Source: Escherichia coli
GTDB lineage: Bacteria > Pseudomonadota > Gammaproteobacteria > Enterobacterales > Enterobacteriaceae
Strand: one strand, 5' to 3'
Assembly: GCF_041886205.1 (NCBI RefSeq)
Contig: NZ_CP169029.1
DNA length: 64,000 bases
Under the pieces are notes generated by a model that saw only the letters and a program-made list of their open reading frames with translations, had not been told where the DNA came from and searched no databases. Positions 2,806-10,351 of this stretch are shown here, piece after piece (within the stretch, counting starts at the first letter, position 1; each line of letters begins with the position of its first letter). The position numbers and the translations under genes were made by a program.

Positions 2806-3747
2806 ATGCGCGAAAAGGATTATGTCGTCATTATAGGCTCGGCGAATATTGATGTCGCCGGATATTCACATGAATCATTAAATTATGCGGATTCAAATCC
2901 AGGTAAAATAAAATTTACGCCTGGTGGAGTCGGGCGCAATATTGCACAAAACCTGGCGTTGCTGGGGAACAAAGCCTGGCTACTGAGCGCCGTAGGCAGT
3001 GACTTTTATGGTCAATCGCTGCTAACGCAAACCAATCAATCTGGCGTTTATGTCGATAAATGCCTGATTGTGCCGGGAGAAAATACGTCTAGTTATTTAT
3101 CATTACTCGATAATACCGGTGAAATGCTGGTTGCTATAAATGACATGAATATTAGCAACGCTATTACAGCTGAATATCTCGCACAGCACCGTGAATTTAT
3201 TCAGAGGGCAAAGGTCATTGTCGCGGACTGTAATATCAGTGAAGAGGCACTGGCATGGATTCTGGATAATGCCGCCAACGTACCCGTATTTGTCGATCCG
3301 GTTTCCGCATGGAAATGTGTCAAAGTGCGCGACCGTCTAAATCAGATCCACACTCTCAAGCCAAACCGCCTTGAAGCGGAAACCCTGAGTGGGATTGCGC
3401 TGTCAGGGCGTGACGATGTGGCAAAAGTTGCTGCCTGGTTCCATCAACATGGCCTGAACCGACTGGTATTGAGCATGGGCGGCGACGGCGTTTATTACAG
3501 CGATATCAGCGGTGAAAATGGCTGGTCTGCGCCGATCAAAACCAATGTTATTAATGTTACCGGAGCGGGCGATGCCATGATGGCGGGACTTGCTTCGTGT
3601 TGGGTAGACGGAATGCCGTTTGCCGAATCTGTTCGTTTCGCACAGGGATGTTCGTCAATGGCGCTCTCCTGTGAATACACCAATAACCCCGATTTATCGA
3701 TTGCCAACGTTATATCGTTAGTGGAGAACGCAGAATGTCTGAATTAA
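2806..3747 (+). CDS. psuK: Pseudouridine kinase (PfkB family)
   Basis: 313-aa ORF starting MREKDYVVIIGSANIDV, with ribokinase-like GG and GAGD motifs; overlaps psuG by 13 nt. Confidence 0.9.
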   Translation: MREKDYVVIIGSANIDVAGYSHESLNYADSNPGKIKFTPGGVGRNIAQNLALLGNKAWLLSAVGSDFYGQSLLTQTNQSGVYVDKCLIVPGENTSSYLSLLDNTGEMLVAINDMNISNAITAEYLAQHREFIQRAKVIVADCNISEEALAWILDNAANVPVFVDPVSAWKCVKVRDRLNQIHTLKPNRLEAETLSGIALSGRDDVAKVAAWFHQHGLNRLVLSMGGDGVYYSDISGENGWSAPIKTNVINVTGAGDAMMAGLASCWVDGMPFAESVRFAQGCSSMALSCEYTNNPDLSIANVISLVENAECLN

Positions 3748-4673
3748 AAATTTCCCCTGAATTATTACAAATTTCCCCGGAAGTGCAGGACGCTTTAAAA
3801 AACAAAAAACCGGTTGTGGCGCTGGAATCGACCATTATTTCTCACGGGATGCCGTTCCCACAAAATGCCCAGACCGCAATTGAAGTAGAAGAAACTATTC
3901 GTAAACAGGGCGCTGTACCTGCCACTATCGCCATTATTGGCGGCGTGATGAAAGTGGGTTTAAGCAAAGAAGAAATTGAATTACTGGGTCGTGAAGGGCA
4001 TAACGTGACCAAAGTTAGTCGTCGCGATTTACCTTTTGTTGTTGCCGCCGGAAAAAATGGCGCAACCACTGTGGCTTCAACGATGATTATTGCGGCGCTT
4101 GCCGGAATTAAAGTATTTGCCACCGGGGGAATTGGTGGTGTGTATCGCGGGGCGGAACATACCTTCGATATTTCTGCCGATTTGCAAGAACTGGCAAATA
4201 CTAATGTCACCGTTGTTTGTGCCGGGGCGAAATCTATTCTCGATTTAGGATTAACCACTGAGTATTTAGAAACCTTCGGTGTGCCGTTAATTGGCTATCA
4301 GACTAAAGCGCTGCCTGCGTTTTTCTGCCGTACCAGCTCGTTTGACGTCAGCATTCGTCTCGACAGCGCCAGTGAAATTGCCCGTGCAATGGCGGTGAAA
4401 TGGCAAAGCGGGCTGAACGGTGGCCTCGTGGTAGCGAACCCGATCCCGGAACAGTTTGCGATGCCGGAGGAATCTATCAATGCAGCCATAGATCAAGCCG
4501 TCGCCGAAGCCGAAGAGCAGGGCGTTATTGGTAAAGAAAGTACACCGTTCCTGCTGGCGCGCGTTGCTGAACTGACCGGCGGTGACAGCCTGAAATCCAA
4601 TATCCAGCTGGTGTTCAACAACGCCATTCTGGCGAGTGAAATTGCCAAAGAATACCAGCGTCTCGCGGGTTAA
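3735..4673 (+). CDS. psuG: Pseudouridine-5'-phosphate glycosidase
   Basis: 312-aa ORF starting MSELKISPELLQISPEVQDALKN; translationally coupled to psuK. Confidence 0.9.
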   Translation: MSELKISPELLQISPEVQDALKNKKPVVALESTIISHGMPFPQNAQTAIEVEETIRKQGAVPATIAIIGGVMKVGLSKEEIELLGREGHNVTKVSRRDLPFVVAAGKNGATTVASTMIIAALAGIKVFATGGIGGVYRGAEHTFDISADLQELANTNVTVVCAGAKSILDLGLTTEYLETFGVPLIGYQTKALPAFFCRTSSFDVSIRLDSASEIARAMAVKWQSGLNGGLVVANPIPEQFAMPEESINAAIDQAVAEAEEQGVIGKESTPFLLARVAELTGGDSLKSNIQLVFNNAILASEIAKEYQRLAG

Positions 4674-4766
4674 TTTCTGACGGGCAGAAAGCCGTCGCCC
4701 GTACTCATCAAACATACCAAAACCTGGCGCTGACGCCGGGTTTACTGGCATGAAGGGAAAATCATT

Positions 4767-6017
4767 ATGGACATAATGAGAAGTGTTGTGGGGATGGTGG
4801 TGTTACTGGCAATAGCATTTCTGTTGTCAGTGAATAAAAAGAGCATCAGTTTGCGTACGGTTGGAGCCGCACTGCTGCTGCAAATCGCTATTGGTGGCAT
4901 CATGCTCTACTTCCCACCGGGAAAATGGGCAGTAGAACAGGCGGCATTAGGCGTTCATAAAGTGATGTCTTACAGTGATGCCGGTAGCGCCTTCATTTTT
5001 GGTTCGCTGGTTGGGCCGAAAATGGATGTCCTGTTTGACGGTGCGGGTTTTATCTTCGTCTTTCGCGTACTTCCGGCGATTATTTTCGTTACTGCGCTCA
5101 TCAGTCTGCTGTACTACATTGGCGTGATGGGGCTGCTGATTCGCATCCTTGGCAGCATTTTCCAGAAAGCTCTTAACATCAGCAAAATCGAATCTTTTGT
5201 CGCAGTCACAACTATTTTCCTCGGGCAAAATGAGATCCCGGCGATCGTTAAACCGTTTATCGATCGCATGAATCGCAACGAGTTGTTTACCGCAATTTGT
5301 AGCGGGATGGCGTCCATTGCTGGTTCGATGATGATTGGTTATGCCGGAATGGGCGTACCAATTGACTACCTGTTAGCGGCATCGCTGATGGCGATCCCAG
5401 GTGGTATTTTGTTTGCACGTATTCTTAGCCCGGCCACCGAGCCTTCGCAGGTCACATTTGAAAATCTGTCGTTCAGCGAAACGCCGCCAAAAAGCTTTAT
5501 CGAAGCGGCGGCGAGCGGTGCGATGACCGGGCTGAAAATCGCCGCTGGTGTAGCGACGGTGGTAATGGCGTTTGTCGCAATTATTGCGCTGATCAACGGC
5601 ATTATCGGCGGAATTGGTGGCTGGTTTGGTTTCGCCAATGCCTCTCTGGAAAGTATTTTTGGCTATGTGCTGGCACCGCTGGCGTGGATCATGGGTGTGG
5701 ACTGGAGTGATGCCAATCTTGCGGGTAGCCTGATTGGGCAGAAACTGGCGATTAACGAATTCGTCGCTTACCTGAGTTTCTCCCCATACCTGCAAACGGG
5801 CGGCACGCTGGAAGTGAAAACCATTGCGATTATCTCCTTTGCGCTTTGTGGTTTTGCTAACTTTGGTTCTATCGGTGTTGTCGTTGGCGCATTTTCGGCT
5901 ATTTCGCCAAAACGTGCTCCAGAAATCGCCCAGCTTGGTTTACGGGCGCTGGCAGCAGCAACGCTTTCCAACCTGATGAGTGCGACTATTGCCGGGTTCT
6001 TTATTGGTCTGGCGTAA
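4767..6017 (+). CDS. psuT: NupC-family nucleoside transporter (YeiM/PsuT)
   Basis: 416-aa polytopic membrane ORF; close paralog of the nupX ORF at 7957-9207. Confidence 0.9.
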   Translation: MDIMRSVVGMVVLLAIAFLLSVNKKSISLRTVGAALLLQIAIGGIMLYFPPGKWAVEQAALGVHKVMSYSDAGSAFIFGSLVGPKMDVLFDGAGFIFVFRVLPAIIFVTALISLLYYIGVMGLLIRILGSIFQKALNISKIESFVAVTTIFLGQNEIPAIVKPFIDRMNRNELFTAICSGMASIAGSMMIGYAGMGVPIDYLLAASLMAIPGGILFARILSPATEPSQVTFENLSFSETPPKSFIEAAASGAMTGLKIAAGVATVVMAFVAIIALINGIIGGIGGWFGFANASLESIFGYVLAPLAWIMGVDWSDANLAGSLIGQKLAINEFVAYLSFSPYLQTGGTLEVKTIAIISFALCGFANFGSIGVVVGAFSAISPKRAPEIAQLGLRALAAATLSNLMSATIAGFFIGLA

Positions 6018-6027
6018 TGCTCGATTT

Positions 6028-6066
6028 GTAGACCGGATAAAACGTATTAAGCGTTGCATCCGGCAA
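6028..6066. repeat. REP (palindromic unit) element
   Basis: gtagaccggataaaacg…gcgttgcatccggca; matches the ccggat / atccgg inverted core of E. coli REP. Confidence 0.6.
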
Positions 6067-6087
6067 TCGCGCTATTGCAAATAATTT

Positions 6088-6747
6088 TTACTGCATCATC
6101 CCGGAGAATTTATTCTCCGGGTCCATCTCCAGCGCCAGTCCTGACAACTGCTTTCTGTTTTTAATGAGATACCCTTTCTTGCTTTTAGTTAATAAACCGT
6201 CGTGAATGAATTGCGCGAGAACATATAAAAGATGTCGATAAGAAACGCCTAAATACTCTGCCGCTTGCGTATGCTTTTCGTGATAAAGATCACCTTCCTG
6301 CGAGAGTAATATAAAAGCTGCCAGGCGATTAACTAACGGAAATGATTGATTCTGAGTTAAAGAAACAATATTACGATAATTTTTATGACTTAAGGTGACG
6401 CAGAGTTTTCGTAAAAATAGCGTGTCGTTTAATAACAGCGGGCGGTAATGTTTCATAGAGAGCGCAAGGCACCAACACTCTTCAATAGCCTGCACCGCAC
6501 GCGGTTCATGGTCTTTGTCGATTAACTCAATCTCACCAATAAAACAGGGGGCGGCAAAGAAATCGATCAGCGACACGCGACCATTAGCAAGCGTGGCGTA
6601 AAGCCTGGCGCGGCCTCGCGTCAGATAAAACAGCCAGGACGGCTGTTGCCCTTCCTGCACAATGTAGTCACGCGCTAAAAAATGAAACAGCCGCGTATCG
6701 GCTGAAACATCCGTTAAAAAGCAATCCTTAAACGCGGATTCACTCAT
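6088..6747 (-). CDS. yeiL: CRP/FNR-family transcriptional regulator YeiL
   Basis: ORF has a cNMP-binding-like N-domain and C-terminal HTH. Start placed at the internal Met ([10 protein letters not shown]…) to give 219 aa; the ORF track extends to 6786. Confidence 0.8.
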
Positions 6748-6800
6748 CAATTGCTGCTTAAGATCATTATTGTGGATTTCTTTCACGATGTTTATCCGCT

Positions 6801-6814
6801 ATGAGATTTCTCAT
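6801..6814. promoter_or_regulatory. 14-bp palindrome ATGAG-N4-CTCAT upstream of yeiL; candidate CRP/FNR-family (FNR or YeiL) site
   Basis: atgagatttctcat read directly; TGA-N6-TCA core geometry is typical of CRP/FNR-family sites. Confidence 0.4.
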
Positions 6815-6915
6815 ATTTAGCATACGTACGCGGTTGGTAAGATTCAATCATCGGCCCGGTCGAATTTTCTTTGCTGTAGAAAAAATAACGCAACTGGAAA
6901 CAGAGGAAATAAACA

Positions 6916-7857
6916 ATGGAAAAGAGAAAAATTATTCTGGATTGTGATCCGGGTCATGATGATGCTATTGCAATGATGATGGCAGCGAAACATCCGGCAA
7001 TAGATTTATTAGGCATCACTATTGTAGCGGGTAATCAGACGCTTGATAAAACATTAATTAATGGCCTGAATGTTTGCCAGAAACTGGAGATTAATGTTCC
7101 GGTTTATGCGGGGATGCCGCAACCCATTATGCGTAAACAAATCGTTGCCGATAATATTCACGGTGAAACCGGACTGGATGGCCCGGTATTCGAGCCGCTG
7201 ACCTGCCAGGCAGAAAGTACCCACGCGGTGAAATACATCATTGATACCCTGATGGCAAGCGATGGCGATATCACTCTGGTGCCGGTTGGTCCGCTTTCAA
7301 ATATCGCGGTGGCAATGCGTATGCAACCCGCGATCCTGCCCAAAATCCGTGAAATTGTGCTAATGGGCGGCGCTTACGGTACAGGCAACTTCACGCCATC
7401 TGCCGAGTTCAACATCTTTGCTGATCCGGAAGCAGCCCGCGTGGTGTTCACCTCCGGCGTTCCATTAGTGATGATGGGCCTCGATCTCACCAACCAGACC
7501 GTTTGCACCCCGGACGTGATTGCACGGATGGAAAGGGCAGGCGGCCCTGCCGGAGAGCTGTTCAGCGACATCATGAACTTCACTCTCAAAACGCAGTTCG
7601 AAAACTACGGCCTGGCTGGCGGCCCGGTGCACGACGCCACCTGCATCGGTTATCTGATTAACCCTGATGGCATTAAAACCCAGGAGATGTACGTCGAAGT
7701 GGACGTCAACAGTGGCCCTTGCTATGGGCGTACCGTCTGCGACGAGCTGGGCGTTCTTGGCAAGCCCGCTAATACCAAAGTCGGCATCACTATTGATACC
7801 GACTGGTTCTGGGGCTTAGTCGAAGAGTGCGTGCGCGGCTACATCAAAACCCATTAA
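6916..7857 (+). CDS. rihB: Pyrimidine-specific ribonucleoside hydrolase RihB
   Basis: 313-aa ORF with the N-terminal DCDPGHDDA aspartate-cluster motif of IU-nucleoside hydrolases. Confidence 0.9.
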
Positions 7858-7956
7858 GTGTTGATAACAAGCCGGGTCAGTATCGCAAGATCCAAGCCCG
7901 GCTATTTCTGATGGGCAGAAAGCCGTCGCCCAATATGACATGAAGAGATAATAACT

Positions 7957-9207
7957 ATGGATGTCATGAGAAGTGTTCTGGGAATGGTGGTATTGCTGAC
8001 GATTGCGTTTTTGCTGTCAGTAAACAAGAAGAAGATCAGCCTGCGTACCGTTGGCGCGGCGTTAGTGTTACAGGTCGTGATTGGCGGGATTATGCTTTGG
8101 TTACCGCCAGGGCGTTGGGTCGCTGAAAAAGTCGCTTTTGGCGTGCATAAAGTGATGGCGTACAGCGACGCGGGTAGCGCATTTATCTTCGGTTCGCTGG
8201 TCGGGCCGAAAATGGACACGCTGTTTGATGGTGCAGGATTTATCTTTGGTTTCAGGGTATTACCGGCAATTATCTTCGTCACTGCACTGGTGAGTATTCT
8301 CTACTACATCGGTGTGATGGGGATTTTAATTCGCATTCTCGGCGGTATATTCCAGAAAGCATTAAATATCAGCAAGATTGAGTCATTCGTCGCGGTCACC
8401 ACCATTTTCCTCGGGCAAAACGAAATTCCGGCGATCGTCAAACCCTTTATCGATCGTCTGAATCGCAATGAATTATTTACAGCGATTTGTAGTGGCATGG
8501 CCTCGATTGCTGGTTCGACAATGATTGGTTACGCCGCCCTGGGCGTACCTGTGGAATATTTGCTGGCGGCATCGTTAATGGCGATCCCAGGCGGGATCTT
8601 GTTTGCCCGCCTGTTAAGCCCGGCTACGGAATCTTCGCAGGTTTCCTTTAATAACCTCTCTTTCACCGAAACACCGCCAAAAAGCATTATTGAAGCCGCT
8701 GCGACAGGGGCAATGACCGGGCTGAAAATCGCCGCCGGTGTAGCGACAGTTGTTATGGCATTTGTCGCCATCATTGCGTTAATTAATGGTATTATCGGCG
8801 GCGTTGGCGGCTGGTTTGGTTTTGCACATGCCTCGCTGGAGTCCATTTTAGGTTACCTGTTGGCCCCATTGGCGTGGGTGATGGGGGGTGACTGGAGTGA
8901 TGCAAATCTTGCCGGGAGTTTGATTGGGCAGAAGCTGGCGATCAATGAATTTGTCGCTTATCTCAATTTCTCGCCATATCTGCAAACGGGTGGCACTCTG
9001 GATGCTAAAACCGTGGCGATTATTTCTTTCGCGTTGTGCGGTTTCGCTAACTTTGGTTCTATCGGGGTGGTGGTGGGGGCGTTTTCTGCGGTTGCGCCAC
9101 ACCGTGCGCCGGAAATCGCCCAACTTGGTTTACGCGCGCTGGCGGCGGCGACACTTTCTAACCTGATGAGTGCTACTATTGCAGGATTCTTTATTGGTTT
9201 AGCGTAG
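7957..9207 (+). CDS. nupX: NupC-family nucleoside transporter NupX
   Basis: 416-aa ORF, about 85-90% identical to PsuT by eye across the whole length. Confidence 0.9.
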   Translation: MDVMRSVLGMVVLLTIAFLLSVNKKKISLRTVGAALVLQVVIGGIMLWLPPGRWVAEKVAFGVHKVMAYSDAGSAFIFGSLVGPKMDTLFDGAGFIFGFRVLPAIIFVTALVSILYYIGVMGILIRILGGIFQKALNISKIESFVAVTTIFLGQNEIPAIVKPFIDRLNRNELFTAICSGMASIAGSTMIGYAALGVPVEYLLAASLMAIPGGILFARLLSPATESSQVSFNNLSFTETPPKSIIEAAATGAMTGLKIAAGVATVVMAFVAIIALINGIIGGVGGWFGFAHASLESILGYLLAPLAWVMGGDWSDANLAGSLIGQKLAINEFVAYLNFSPYLQTGGTLDAKTVAIISFALCGFANFGSIGVVVGAFSAVAPHRAPEIAQLGLRALAAATLSNLMSATIAGFFIGLA

Positions 9208-9218
9208 TGCGCAATTTA

Positions 9219-9257
9219 TGAGCCGGATAAGATGCGGTCAAGCGTCGAATCCGGCAA
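9219..9257. repeat. REP element
   Basis: tgagccggataagatgcggtcaagcgtcgaatccggcaa. Confidence 0.55.
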
Positions 9258-9262
9258 CATTG

Positions 9263-10351
9263 TTACACCATTGGCACTAATGAAAGCGCGTTATCGGCAG
9301 ACAGGGTAGGGTTGTTTAAGCTGCCGCTGGCGCGCGAAATTGCCGCGCAGGCTACCGCAAAACGGGCGCTGTCGCGGAAACTGTATCCTTCAAGAAAGCT
9401 ATATACCAGGCCCGCCATAAAACCATCGTCAGCACCAAAACTGTCTACTGTCGTATGCGCTGGCGCGGTCAGCAAAAATTGTTCTCCATCCTTTTCGCTG
9501 CAATAAACTGACTCATCGGGCAAATAAACAAACAGTTGCTGAACACCTTGCTGATGCAATGCATTCACTGCGGCATTACGGTCAGCATCGCTGGTGATCG
9601 CCTGTCCCCATAAAATTTCCAGCTCCGGTAAAGTGGGTTTCAGGGTGTGAATATGCGCCAGCCAGTGTTTGATTTTGCCCGCTTTGAATTCTGAAACGGT
9701 ATCGACAAACACCGGGATTTCATCAGCGAGGGTAAAGACCCATTCCAGCGCCTCGGCTGTCAGGTTGCAATCAGCCAGTACCACGCCCGCATGACGAAGT
9801 AAATCGCGCGACCCGTTCAGTAGTTGCGGTGTCAACTGTTCCAGCAGATGGGTATCGTTAATCGCCAGCACGGTTTGATCGTCTCGATTGGCAATTGCCA
9901 GATACGTCGATGTGCTTTGACCATGCAAACGAACGCAGCCGGAGACATTCACGCCGGCACGGCGCGTTTCTTCCAGGAGCATTTCGCCATAAAAGTCATC
10001 GCCAATCACTGAAAGCAAATGGACGTCACGGCCTAACAGCGCCAGATTGTGGGCGATGTTGCGTCCCACGCCGCCCGCCGAGCAATGAATTGTACCGGGA
10101 TGAGAAGCCGCTTGCGGGTAACGGATATCCGCCATCCCGCGAATATCCATATTGATTGTCCCCACCACTACGCAGTATTCCTGCTCGGTGAGAATGTAAC
10201 CTTTGCCTTTAATCCGCCCTTTGCGCATTAAATCCATAATATGCGCCGCAACGCGCGAACGACTGATTTGCAGCATGTCCGCAATTTCGTTCTGCTGAAT
10301 CAGCGGGTTACGCCGTAAAATTGCAAGGATCTCCTTTTCCCGGTTATTCAT
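9263..10351 (-). CDS. yeiI: HTH-fused PfkB-family sugar/nucleoside kinase YeiI
   Basis: 362-aa ORF: N-terminal HTH (ILAILRRNPLIQQNEIADMLQISRSRVAAHI) followed by a ribokinase-like domain homologous to PsuK. Confidence 0.85.
   Translation of the reverse strand: MNNREKEILAILRRNPLIQQNEIADMLQISRSRVAAHIMDLMRKGRIKGKGYILTEQEYCVVVGTINMDIRGMADIRYPQAASHPGTIHCSAGGVGRNIAHNLALLGRDVHLLSVIGDDFYGEMLLEETRRAGVNVSGCVRLHGQSTSTYLAIANRDDQTVLAINDTHLLEQLTPQLLNGSRDLLRHAGVVLADCNLTAEALEWVFTLADEIPVFVDTVSEFKAGKIKHWLAHIHTLKPTLPELEILWGQAITSDADRNAAVNALHQQGVQQLFVYLPDESVYCSEKDGEQFLLTAPAHTTVDSFGADDGFMAGLVYSFLEGYSFRDSARFAVACAAISRASGSLNNPTLSADNALSLVPMV

Follow-up and report, generated by a model that had tools for sequence, protein, structure and literature searches.

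Two genes for transporters of the CNT/NupC family, psuT and nupX, are carried on the stretch of 64,000 nucleotides (nt) of Escherichia coli DNA analysed here (contig NZ_CP169029.1; hereafter the window), and each of them is preceded by an almost identical non-coding element of 28 nt, the 28-mer. The question raised by this locus is what the 28-mer is and why its two copies are so alike. The comparison of leaders from related genera suggests that the 28-mers are the E. coli copies of an old leader hairpin, designated H1, which would act in cis as a structural element of the mRNA and set the output of the transporter; we put the probability of this reading at about 50%.

The 28-mer and the H1 hairpin

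First of all, the 28-mer, ATTTCTGAYGGGCAGAAAGCCGTCGCCC, was located by exact pattern match at 4673..4700 (psuT copy) and at 7904..7931 (nupX copy), both on the + strand. These are its only two occurrences in the window, shuffled sequences giving an expectation of 0.00, and the copies agree at 27 of 28 positions. That is to say, the shared element reported in a preliminary description of this DNA is there in two copies, and only its starts, given as 4677 and 7908, have to be moved 4 nt upstream. A BLAST search of 5,426 complete E. coli genomes finds two places per genome in 5,424 of them (median 2, maximum 3). Since it occupies about two places per genome, at orthologous positions across genera, the 28-mer is not a dispersed repeat or mobile element.

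The two genes, which had been called near-identical, share 982 of 1251 nt (78.5%) and 88.5% of their protein residues; only 51% of third codon positions are identical, and 48% of the conserved residues are encoded by different codons. On these figures psuT and nupX are old paralogues and not near-identical. The non-coding match of 27/28 is exceptional, since the synonymous sites are saturated and just 8 of 1,224 coding windows of 28 nt have one mismatch or none. In the pairwise alignment the 28-mer is followed by an indel of 41 nt and then by 16/21 matching positions up to the ATG; behind the stop codons the 3′ flanks match at 36/49 positions (6018-6066 versus 9208-9257). Beyond these limits the identity is about 33%, which is the chance level, and upstream of 4673/7904 no DNA similarity was seen. 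The alternative that the similarity is limited to the coding sequence and that the 28-nt match is coincidental is contradicted by this alignment, in which both leader and 3′ flank are homologous.

The psuT copy of H1 (4680..4702, + strand) was identified as an inverted repeat, in the minimum-free-energy fold, in the RNAalifold consensus and by pair counts on 23 leaders; its stem ACGGGC/GCCCGU (4680-4685 with 4697-4702) closes an 11-nt loop, AGAAAGCCGUC. The nupX copy (7911..7933, + strand), identified by fold and leader alignment, has the stem UGGGC/GCCCA (7912-7916 with 7928-7932), the same loop as psuT and an outer A.A pair. Since the H1 stem runs 2 nt past the 3′ end of the 28-mer, the 28-mer falls short of the conserved unit, which in psuT is ACGGGC-N11-GCCCGU. 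The sole mismatch between the 28-mers, C4681/T7912, is compensated by G4701/A7932, that is, a C-G pair is replaced by a U-A pair. The palindrome TTTCTG/CAGAAA, which is visible in E. coli, was also considered as the functional unit and was rejected as lineage-specific: 58% of the TTTCT/AGAAA cells pair in the 23 leaders, with no excess over shuffles. Its counterpart in Superficieibacter reads CUGACU/AGUCAG.

The leaders were gathered without the motif as bait, by a genome scan with the PsuT protein and by tracing NupX homologues to their contigs, which gave 24 PsuT/NupX leaders, in about 14 genera, whose proteins share 85% identity or more. H1 is present in 23 of the 24 at orthologous positions, always with a spacing of 11 nt, and its consensus RYGGGC/GCCCRY describes a G+C-rich stem of 6 bp with an 11-nt loop. 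In the gapless alignment of the 23 sequences, 95.7% of 138 stem cells pair, versus 33-53% when the partners are slid by 1-3 columns. There are three compensatory pairs (C-G/U-A, A-U/G-C and G-C/A-U, in 7, 4 and 2 sequences, respectively), the covariation score was reached by none of 500 shuffles, and RNAalifold independently returned the H1 helix. Moreover, the loop positions G6, C7, G9 and U10 have a pairwise identity of 0.76-1.00, versus 0.35-0.39 in the flanks and 0.52 in the loop of H2, a second hairpin of the leader (see below). Among the five E. coli strains sampled, the adjoining linker is polymorphic and H1 does not vary. As the compensatory changes, the conserved loop bases and this invariance beside a varying linker show, H1 is under purifying selection.

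With these data, it is extremely improbable that the 28-mers match by chance, that they are a terminator hairpin of the ordinary kind, or that a small mobile repeat was inserted independently at both sites. Both copies do lie in intergenic DNA that also holds repetitive extragenic palindromic (REP) sequences and other hairpins, and the words GGGCAGA/TCTGCCC recur in the fruA terminator (2538-2561). However, shuffles, copy number and covariation refute this explanation: no chance match is expected, each genome has only two copies, the positions are orthologous in about 14 genera, and no U tract follows H1. As for H1 as an intrinsic terminator, the terminator scan was silent, and the hairpin is followed by ACUCAUCA in psuT and AUAUGACA in nupX.

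The wobble pairs of the H1 stem (6 cells) are all U.G on the sense strand, and one H2 pair is U.G in the majority of leaders. Because of this orientation of the wobbles, H1 is assigned, on comparative grounds, to the sense-strand RNA. It lies inside the operons, 3′ of the stop codon of the upstream gene and 23-64 nt 5′ of the ATG. A DNA operator GGGC-N11-GCCC, read by a transcription factor such as YeiL, YeiI or YeiE, would likewise account for dyad symmetry and for a spacing fixed at 11 bp in 23/23 leaders, and regulators with a helix-turn-helix (HTH) domain are encoded next door. We nevertheless regard an operator as very unlikely: the arms change together in the three ways given above, so that complementarity is kept and not base identity, the six G.U cells would be A.C mismatches in a dyad, the site is intra-operonic and lies past the upstream stop codon, no promoter-like site was found at H1, and the hairpin is present beside yeiL or yeiI alike.

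Three other structures were tried and rejected. The alternative hairpin GACGG/CCGUC pairs in 69.6% of cells, equal to the shuffle mean of 69.9%. An H-type pseudoknot between loop and flank gives 58% pairing, with mean helices of 4.9 nt upstream and 4.3 nt downstream versus 4.7 and 4.6 nt in shuffles. A small open reading frame (ORF) through H1 (7912-7944 in the window) would have its AUG only in leaders with AUGGGC arms and would encode MGRKPSPNMT* in E. coli nupX; it has no Shine-Dalgarno sequence, and the AUG is absent from ACGGGC and GCGGGC arms.

Regarding prior knowledge, Rfam 15 searched at E ≤ 10 contained no relevant family for the H1 leaders, the best overlapping match being isrJ at E 4.4, with 20.1 bits where the gathering score is 37. 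A covariance model of H1, run over about 1 Mb of loci that included the 73%-identical Serratia/Hafnia homologues and more distant CNT genes, matched only its own source leaders; none was found in 93 other loci, and in K-12 there was no match near nupC, nupG, xapAB, rihA, rihC, cdd or udp. A metagenome scan with GGGCAGNNNGCDGTCGCCC returned 120 loci, all of them chance matches in G+C-rich contigs and none beside a NupC homologue. In the literature on psuT, nupX, yeiL and riboswitches, no description of H1 was found. H1 is thus a real leader element which is absent from Rfam and from the literature searched and which is of a familiar kind, the cis-acting leader hairpin. A different hairpin is conserved in front of the 73%-identical homologues of Serratia, Hafnia and 'Klebsiella sp. 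BIGb0407' (loci L007-L010), where it lies 60-110 nt upstream of position 4001. An AT-rich stretch precedes it, and a variable interior separates its invariant arms, CCUGAAAGG...CCUUUCAGG.

The rest of the leader and the proposed role of H1

In psuT, H1 is followed by a linker and by H2. The linker (4703..4722, + strand; ACUCAUCAAACAUACCAAAA), delimited from the leader alignments, is C/A-rich and single-stranded, and its core AUCARNNAUACCRAAA is common to the long-form leaders, by which we mean every psuT leader and, among the nupX leaders, that of Klebsiella spallanzanii. H2 (4719..4743, + strand), found in the fold and in the RNAalifold consensus of 13 long-form leaders, is a terminator-like hairpin AAAA-CCUGGCG-CUGA-CGCCGGG-UUU, which adjoins the psuT Shine-Dalgarno sequence GAAGGGA (4752-4758) from upstream. 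That is to say, the order in the long form is H1, C/A-rich linker, H2 and Shine-Dalgarno sequence, and H1, linker and H2 together appear, from the sequences compared, to be the ancestral layout of the leader. Across the 13 leaders, the 7-bp stem of H2 varies between U.G and C-G and between C-G and U-A; it is flanked by an A tract and followed by 3-4 U, the tail being UUU in E. coli and UUUU in Klebsiella, Enterobacter and Leclercia. The junction between psuG and psuT (4600-4800) is polymorphic within E. coli, 1,069 of 5,408 genomes being 90-95% identical to the window over 201 nt; in a small E. coli sample the differences are concentrated in the linker rather than in H1.

Many nupX leaders have no H2 and lack part of the linker, and H2 has apparently been lost there by deletion between CTGGC repeats. 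In E. coli nupX a further net deletion of 12 nt lies right after H1 (7932-7936), where GCCCA|AUAUGAC stands versus GCCCAUAACGGGAUCAGACCUGAC in a divergent Escherichia (locus L002). This deletion takes away the outer A-U pair and a conserved UCAGAC, and it is fixed in E. coli, the undeleted L002-type leader being found in 0 of 5,426 complete genomes. The nupX leader also carries a hairpin after rihB, H0 (7870..7903, + strand; AGCCGGG-N20-CCCGGCU, then AUUUCU), which was recognised by fold, inverted repeat and alignment. H0 is always present in nupX leaders and has a different sequence in every genus; an ordinary hairpin, in contrast to H1, does not keep its sequence.

According to the proposed reading, H1 would be transcribed on the sense strand as part of the psuK-psuG-psuT and rihB-nupX mRNAs, in each case between the gene of the enzyme and that of the transporter, and would act in cis as a structural mRNA element for which no dedicated ligand is required. 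It would thereby set the amount of transporter relative to the upstream enzyme, possibly by shielding or insulating the transporter cistron once read-through or processing has occurred and, where H2 is present, by working together with partial termination at H2. What speaks for a mainly structural role is that a strong hairpin has been kept in three lineages although its loop or its whole sequence was replaced. These are the nupX leaders of Leclercia and Enterobacter, in which the H1 loop is replaced by a helix-extending one, and psuT of Entomohabitans (locus L204, ~4605-4650), which has no H1 and has an unrelated perfect hairpin of 15 bp, CAGCGCUGUUCCCGG...CCGGGAAACAGCGCUG, in its place, and which keeps the linker and H2. 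Intercistronic stem-loops are known to set differential expression within polycistronic mRNAs, such as the REP hairpins between malE and malF and the hairpins of the puf operon. By analogy, H1 would resemble them as a stable hairpin acting in cis between an upstream gene and a downstream transporter gene of one operon. Unlike them, H1 is conserved in sequence, loop bases included, from genus to genus and in two paralogous operons, and it fronts the downstream cistron, the role of a barrier at the 3′ end of the upstream gene falling to H0 in nupX leaders.

The main competitor, tentative and clearly behind the structural role in our estimate, is that H1, with or without linker and H2, is a recognition site whose GC.GU loop is read by a trans-acting protein, a small RNA or a small molecule such as pseudouridine or uridine, so that the transporter is expressed conditionally, as with a riboregulator, attenuator or riboswitch. 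The strong conservation of loop positions 6, 7, 9 and 10 despite saturated synonymous sites, with the H2 loop at 0.52, speaks for it, and so do the restriction of H1 to one transporter clade and the layout of hairpin, linker, terminator-like hairpin, Shine-Dalgarno sequence and AUG, which is like the expression platform of a riboswitch. The derived states common to both E. coli copies could also be produced by co-evolution with one partner. In addition, the 3′ arm of H2 with its U tract (CGCCGGGUUU, 4734-4743 in the window) is 100% conserved in 12 long-form leaders and the 5′ arm varies, with U or C opposite G; this asymmetry may reflect mere wobble tolerance or a second pairing partner for the 3′ arm. 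Against recognition, H1 is a single 23-nt hairpin with no Rfam family at the cut-off used, the loop-flank pseudoknot is not above chance, the loop or whole hairpin is replaced in the three lineages just named, many nupX leaders have lost H2 along with most of the linker, and the neighbourhood holds no candidate RNA-binding regulator, yeiL and yeiI carrying DNA-binding HTH domains.

A more specific and more doubtful form of recognition is that H1, linker and H2 make up a compact conditional attenuator of PsuT/NupX, either a tiny pseudouridine/uridine riboswitch or a site at which a small RNA or an RNA-binding regulator reads GC.GU. If it were true, the E. coli copies would be kept identical through answering to the same partner. 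A multi-element aptamer with covariation, as expected of a riboswitch, was not found in these leaders, the H1 hairpin alone being supported. Very small aptamers do exist, such as preQ1-I and guanidine-II (mini-ykkC), and H1 is similar to them in its size class of ~20-35 nt, its conserved loop nucleotides and its site upstream of a transporter gene; unlike them, it has no detected pseudoknot or second hairpin partner and no Rfam match, and its loop is replaceable in some lineages.

Leader attenuators also occur in enterobacterial operons of nucleotide metabolism, namely pyrBI and pyrE. The psuT leader is similar in having the terminator-like H2 directly 5′ of the ribosome-binding site and the hairpin H1 upstream of it, and the upstream ORF, psuG, ends 6-11 nt before H1, so that a terminating ribosome would overlap the 5′ arm of H1. 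The 3′ arm of H1 (GCCCG) is, moreover, complementary to the 3′ arm of H2 (CGGGU); since the latter is invariant across leaders, covariation cannot appear in this pairing. Given the spacing of the psuG stop codon and this complementarity, a coupling of H2 read-through to psuG translation is possible and speculative, and it cannot apply to nupX leaders. Differences from pyrBI and pyrE are the weak U tract of H2 (3-4 U), the lack of a leader peptide, the lack of a demonstrated conserved alternative pairing, and the persistence of H1 where H2 is lost.

Several points weigh against a structural H1 that sets transporter output. A role that is structural and nothing else does not account for the conserved loop bases G6, C7, G9 and U10. 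In E. coli, H2 ends in just 3 U and lies below the threshold of the terminator scan (5 T in 8), and it is deleted in many nupX leaders that retain H1; because H1 persists there, it cannot depend on H2. As nupX-type leaders already carry H0 after rihB, protection of the 3′ end of the upstream gene would be redundant in them. The sample is small, 23 related sequences, and the register of H1 was chosen by a regular expression that constrains four inner pairs; MAFFT and RNAalifold recover the same register independently of it. The homogenisation of the 28-mer by gene conversion, to which we come below, is itself read from the pattern of similarity. With a presumed shift of +1978 for the revisions of the reference sequence, two published 5′ ends would fall at ~2711 (95 nt upstream of psuK) and ~4784 (17 nt inside psuT) of the window. 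They are the class II 5′ ends 2257413 and 2255340, on the strand of the transporter genes, of Romero 2014 (PMC4681348), whose table is in U00096.2 coordinates and, after this shift, gives no site in either leader. Finally, it has been reported that rihB is physiologically silent, yet it is induced 25-fold in medium conditioned with autoinducer 2 (AI-2) (PMC2898832).

If the output of the transporter is indeed controlled by H1, this hairpin would be the first cis-regulatory element on record for two poorly understood nucleoside-salvage operons, psuKGT and rihB-nupX. A generic structural role would be unremarkable, the interest being modest unless H1 is a conditional switch, and the finding does not open a long-standing question.

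Age of the paralogues and gene conversion

The preliminary description supposed that the element had been carried along in the duplication of the transporter gene. A phylogeny was made to date this event, in which only 1 of 200 bootstraps joins the Escherichia paralogues; with the saturated third positions, this puts the split of psuT and nupX before the divergence of the sampled genera. At the deeper branches, psuT is monophyletic in 27/200 and nupX in 158/200 bootstraps, and therefore only a split before the genera is claimed. In many genera H1 stands in the leaders of both lineages, psuT and nupX, so that it indeed moved along with the transporter gene; the match of 27/28, however, is more readily accounted for by later homogenisation through gene conversion than by mere retention since the duplication. 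A 28-mer identity of 26-27/28 is seen only between Escherichia paralogues, versus a mean of 17.7/28 over 218 pairs with saturated third positions. In E. coli, the identity of the 28-mer is higher between paralogues than between orthologues, and the flank of psuT has more states in common with E. coli nupX than with the Citrobacter orthologue.

In L002, gene conversion between the two paralogues can be seen directly: the last ~170 nt of psuT and nupX (~5080-5251 and ~8280-8452) are 97-100% identical versus ~78% elsewhere. The genome of L002 is labelled E. coli SCPM-O-B-8794, and its coding third positions are just 78% identical to the window. Milder tracts of similarity suggest conversion in Entomohabitans and Kluyvera. 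Concerted evolution of paralogues by gene conversion is known from tufA/tufB in enterobacteria, and the likeness, by analogy, is a tract more similar between paralogues than to orthologues, as well as the highly identical tract of L002. The psuT/nupX tracts, unlike those of tufA/tufB, are short and patchy (~30 nt in the leader; ~170 nt at the 3′ end, in the sister lineage), and the whole genes stay at 78%.

Such conversion, together with the Escherichia-specific outlier that the 28-mer identity represents, might suggest that the element has no function of its own, its near-identity being a by-product of recent conversion and the hairpin a neutral passenger. We consider this unlikely, and covariation, the RNAalifold consensus and loop conservation largely refute it. 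Conversion does not account for the conservation of H1 between genera and species with a single gene (Salmonella, Buttiauxella, Dryocola, K. spallanzanii, Citrobacter and K. michiganensis), for the compensatory changes of the stem or for the invariance of H1 beside a polymorphic linker in E. coli. The E. coli match of 27/28 is thus probably the product of selection on H1 and of later homogenisation of a tract of ~30 nt by gene conversion, which would make it a clean small case of two paralogous operons whose common non-coding element is held alike by both processes.

Gene neighbourhood and 3′ REP elements

The counterpart of the window in MG1655 lies at ~2.25-2.26 Mb in reverse orientation, and the psuT leader differs from that of K-12 at three positions. 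On the + strand, psuK (2806-3747; ORF, Pfam PfkB) is followed by psuG (3735..4673), which encodes pseudouridine-5′-phosphate glycosidase (ORF; Pfam Indigoidine_A, E 1.5e-131; K-12 annotation) and whose stop codon ends 6 nt upstream of H1, and by psuT (4767..6017; ORF, K-12 annotation, Pfam). On the − strand, yeiL (6088..6786; Pfam cNMP_binding and HTH_Crp_2) encodes a CRP/FNR-family regulator and is divergent from rihB (6916..7857, + strand), the gene of a pyrimidine ribonucleoside hydrolase (annotation; Pfam IU_nuc_hydro, E 9.7e-98). Then come nupX (7957..9207, + strand; ORF, annotation, Pfam) and, convergent with it, yeiI (9263..10351, − strand; Pfam HTH_24 and PfkB). Both transporter ORFs are of 416 aa, as described earlier, and PsuT and NupX each contain Nucleos_tra2_N, Gate and Nucleos_tra2_C above the Pfam cut-offs. 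It has been reported that NupX transports uridine and cytidine weakly and that PsuT transports none of uridine, cytidine and xanthosine (PMC11241209).

The preliminary description regarded each transporter gene, with its neighbouring nucleoside-cleaving enzyme and PfkB kinase, as one copy of a duplicated module. These neighbours are present, as Pfam confirms, but nupX and yeiI are paired merely through the order that these genes happen to have in E. coli, and a multi-gene duplication is not borne out: the families of PsuG and RihB are unrelated, yeiI goes with psuKGT, and the DNA similarity begins at 4673/7904. The duplicated part comprises only the leader, the transporter gene and the 3′ flank. 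The kinase domain of YeiI is 40% identical to PsuK over 307 residues (9266-10351 versus 2806-3744 in the window), and YeiI is therefore a PsuK paralogue with an extra N-terminal winged-helix domain.

In other genera, the unit yeiL(−)-rihB-nupX occurs without psuKGT or yeiI (Buttiauxella, Leclercia adecarboxylata, Salmonella, K. spallanzanii and Dryocola), and psuK-psuG-psuT-yeiI(−) occurs without rihB-nupX (Citrobacter, E. albertii, K. michiganensis and Leclercia TB492). There, yeiI is convergent with psuT, and it is linked to psuKGT in five other genera; yeiL is the constant partner of rihB-nupX. From these gene orders, yeiI is grouped with the pseudouridine genes psuKGT and yeiL with rihB-nupX, a corrected grouping which matters to anyone assigning functions to yeiI and yeiL. 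Enterobacter hormaechei has both units in the order opposite to that of E. coli, and since the swap point falls at the paralogous transporter genes, recombination between them is suggested.

As described earlier, a REP element follows each transporter gene. The palindromes are located at 6033-6063 within the psuT 3′ flank (6018..6066, + strand) and at 9222-9255 within the homologous nupX 3′ flank (9208..9257, + strand), both beginning 16 nt past the stop codon, with arms of 12 and 14 nt that are 83% and 79% complementary. They are extragenic and multi-copy, and their signature, CCGGATAA-N-ATCCGG, occurs 4 times in the 64-kb window versus 0 expected, in the form also found in two canonical REPs of the window. 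BLAST of the psuT REP, with a median of 2 places, is uninformative as to copy number. Weak Rfam matches to the REP-derived naRNA4 (6031-6095 and 9221-9266) lie below the gathering score. Unlike REP elements, the upstream 28-mer with H1 is not dispersed. In other genera, ordinary and unrelated hairpins follow psuT and nupX; the 3′ REPs are lineage-specific additions, and their similarity probably also stems from exchange by gene conversion.

A related rearrangement was observed in E. albertii. Its psuT, although 98% identical to E. coli PsuT, has the 3′ end of an E. coli nupX gene (locus L003, 3440-3510), made up of the final 12 nt together with the flank and the REP, and yeiI comes directly after it. 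This species is without yeiL-rihB-nupX, and the arrangement is consistent with deletion of these genes by recombination between the paralogues.

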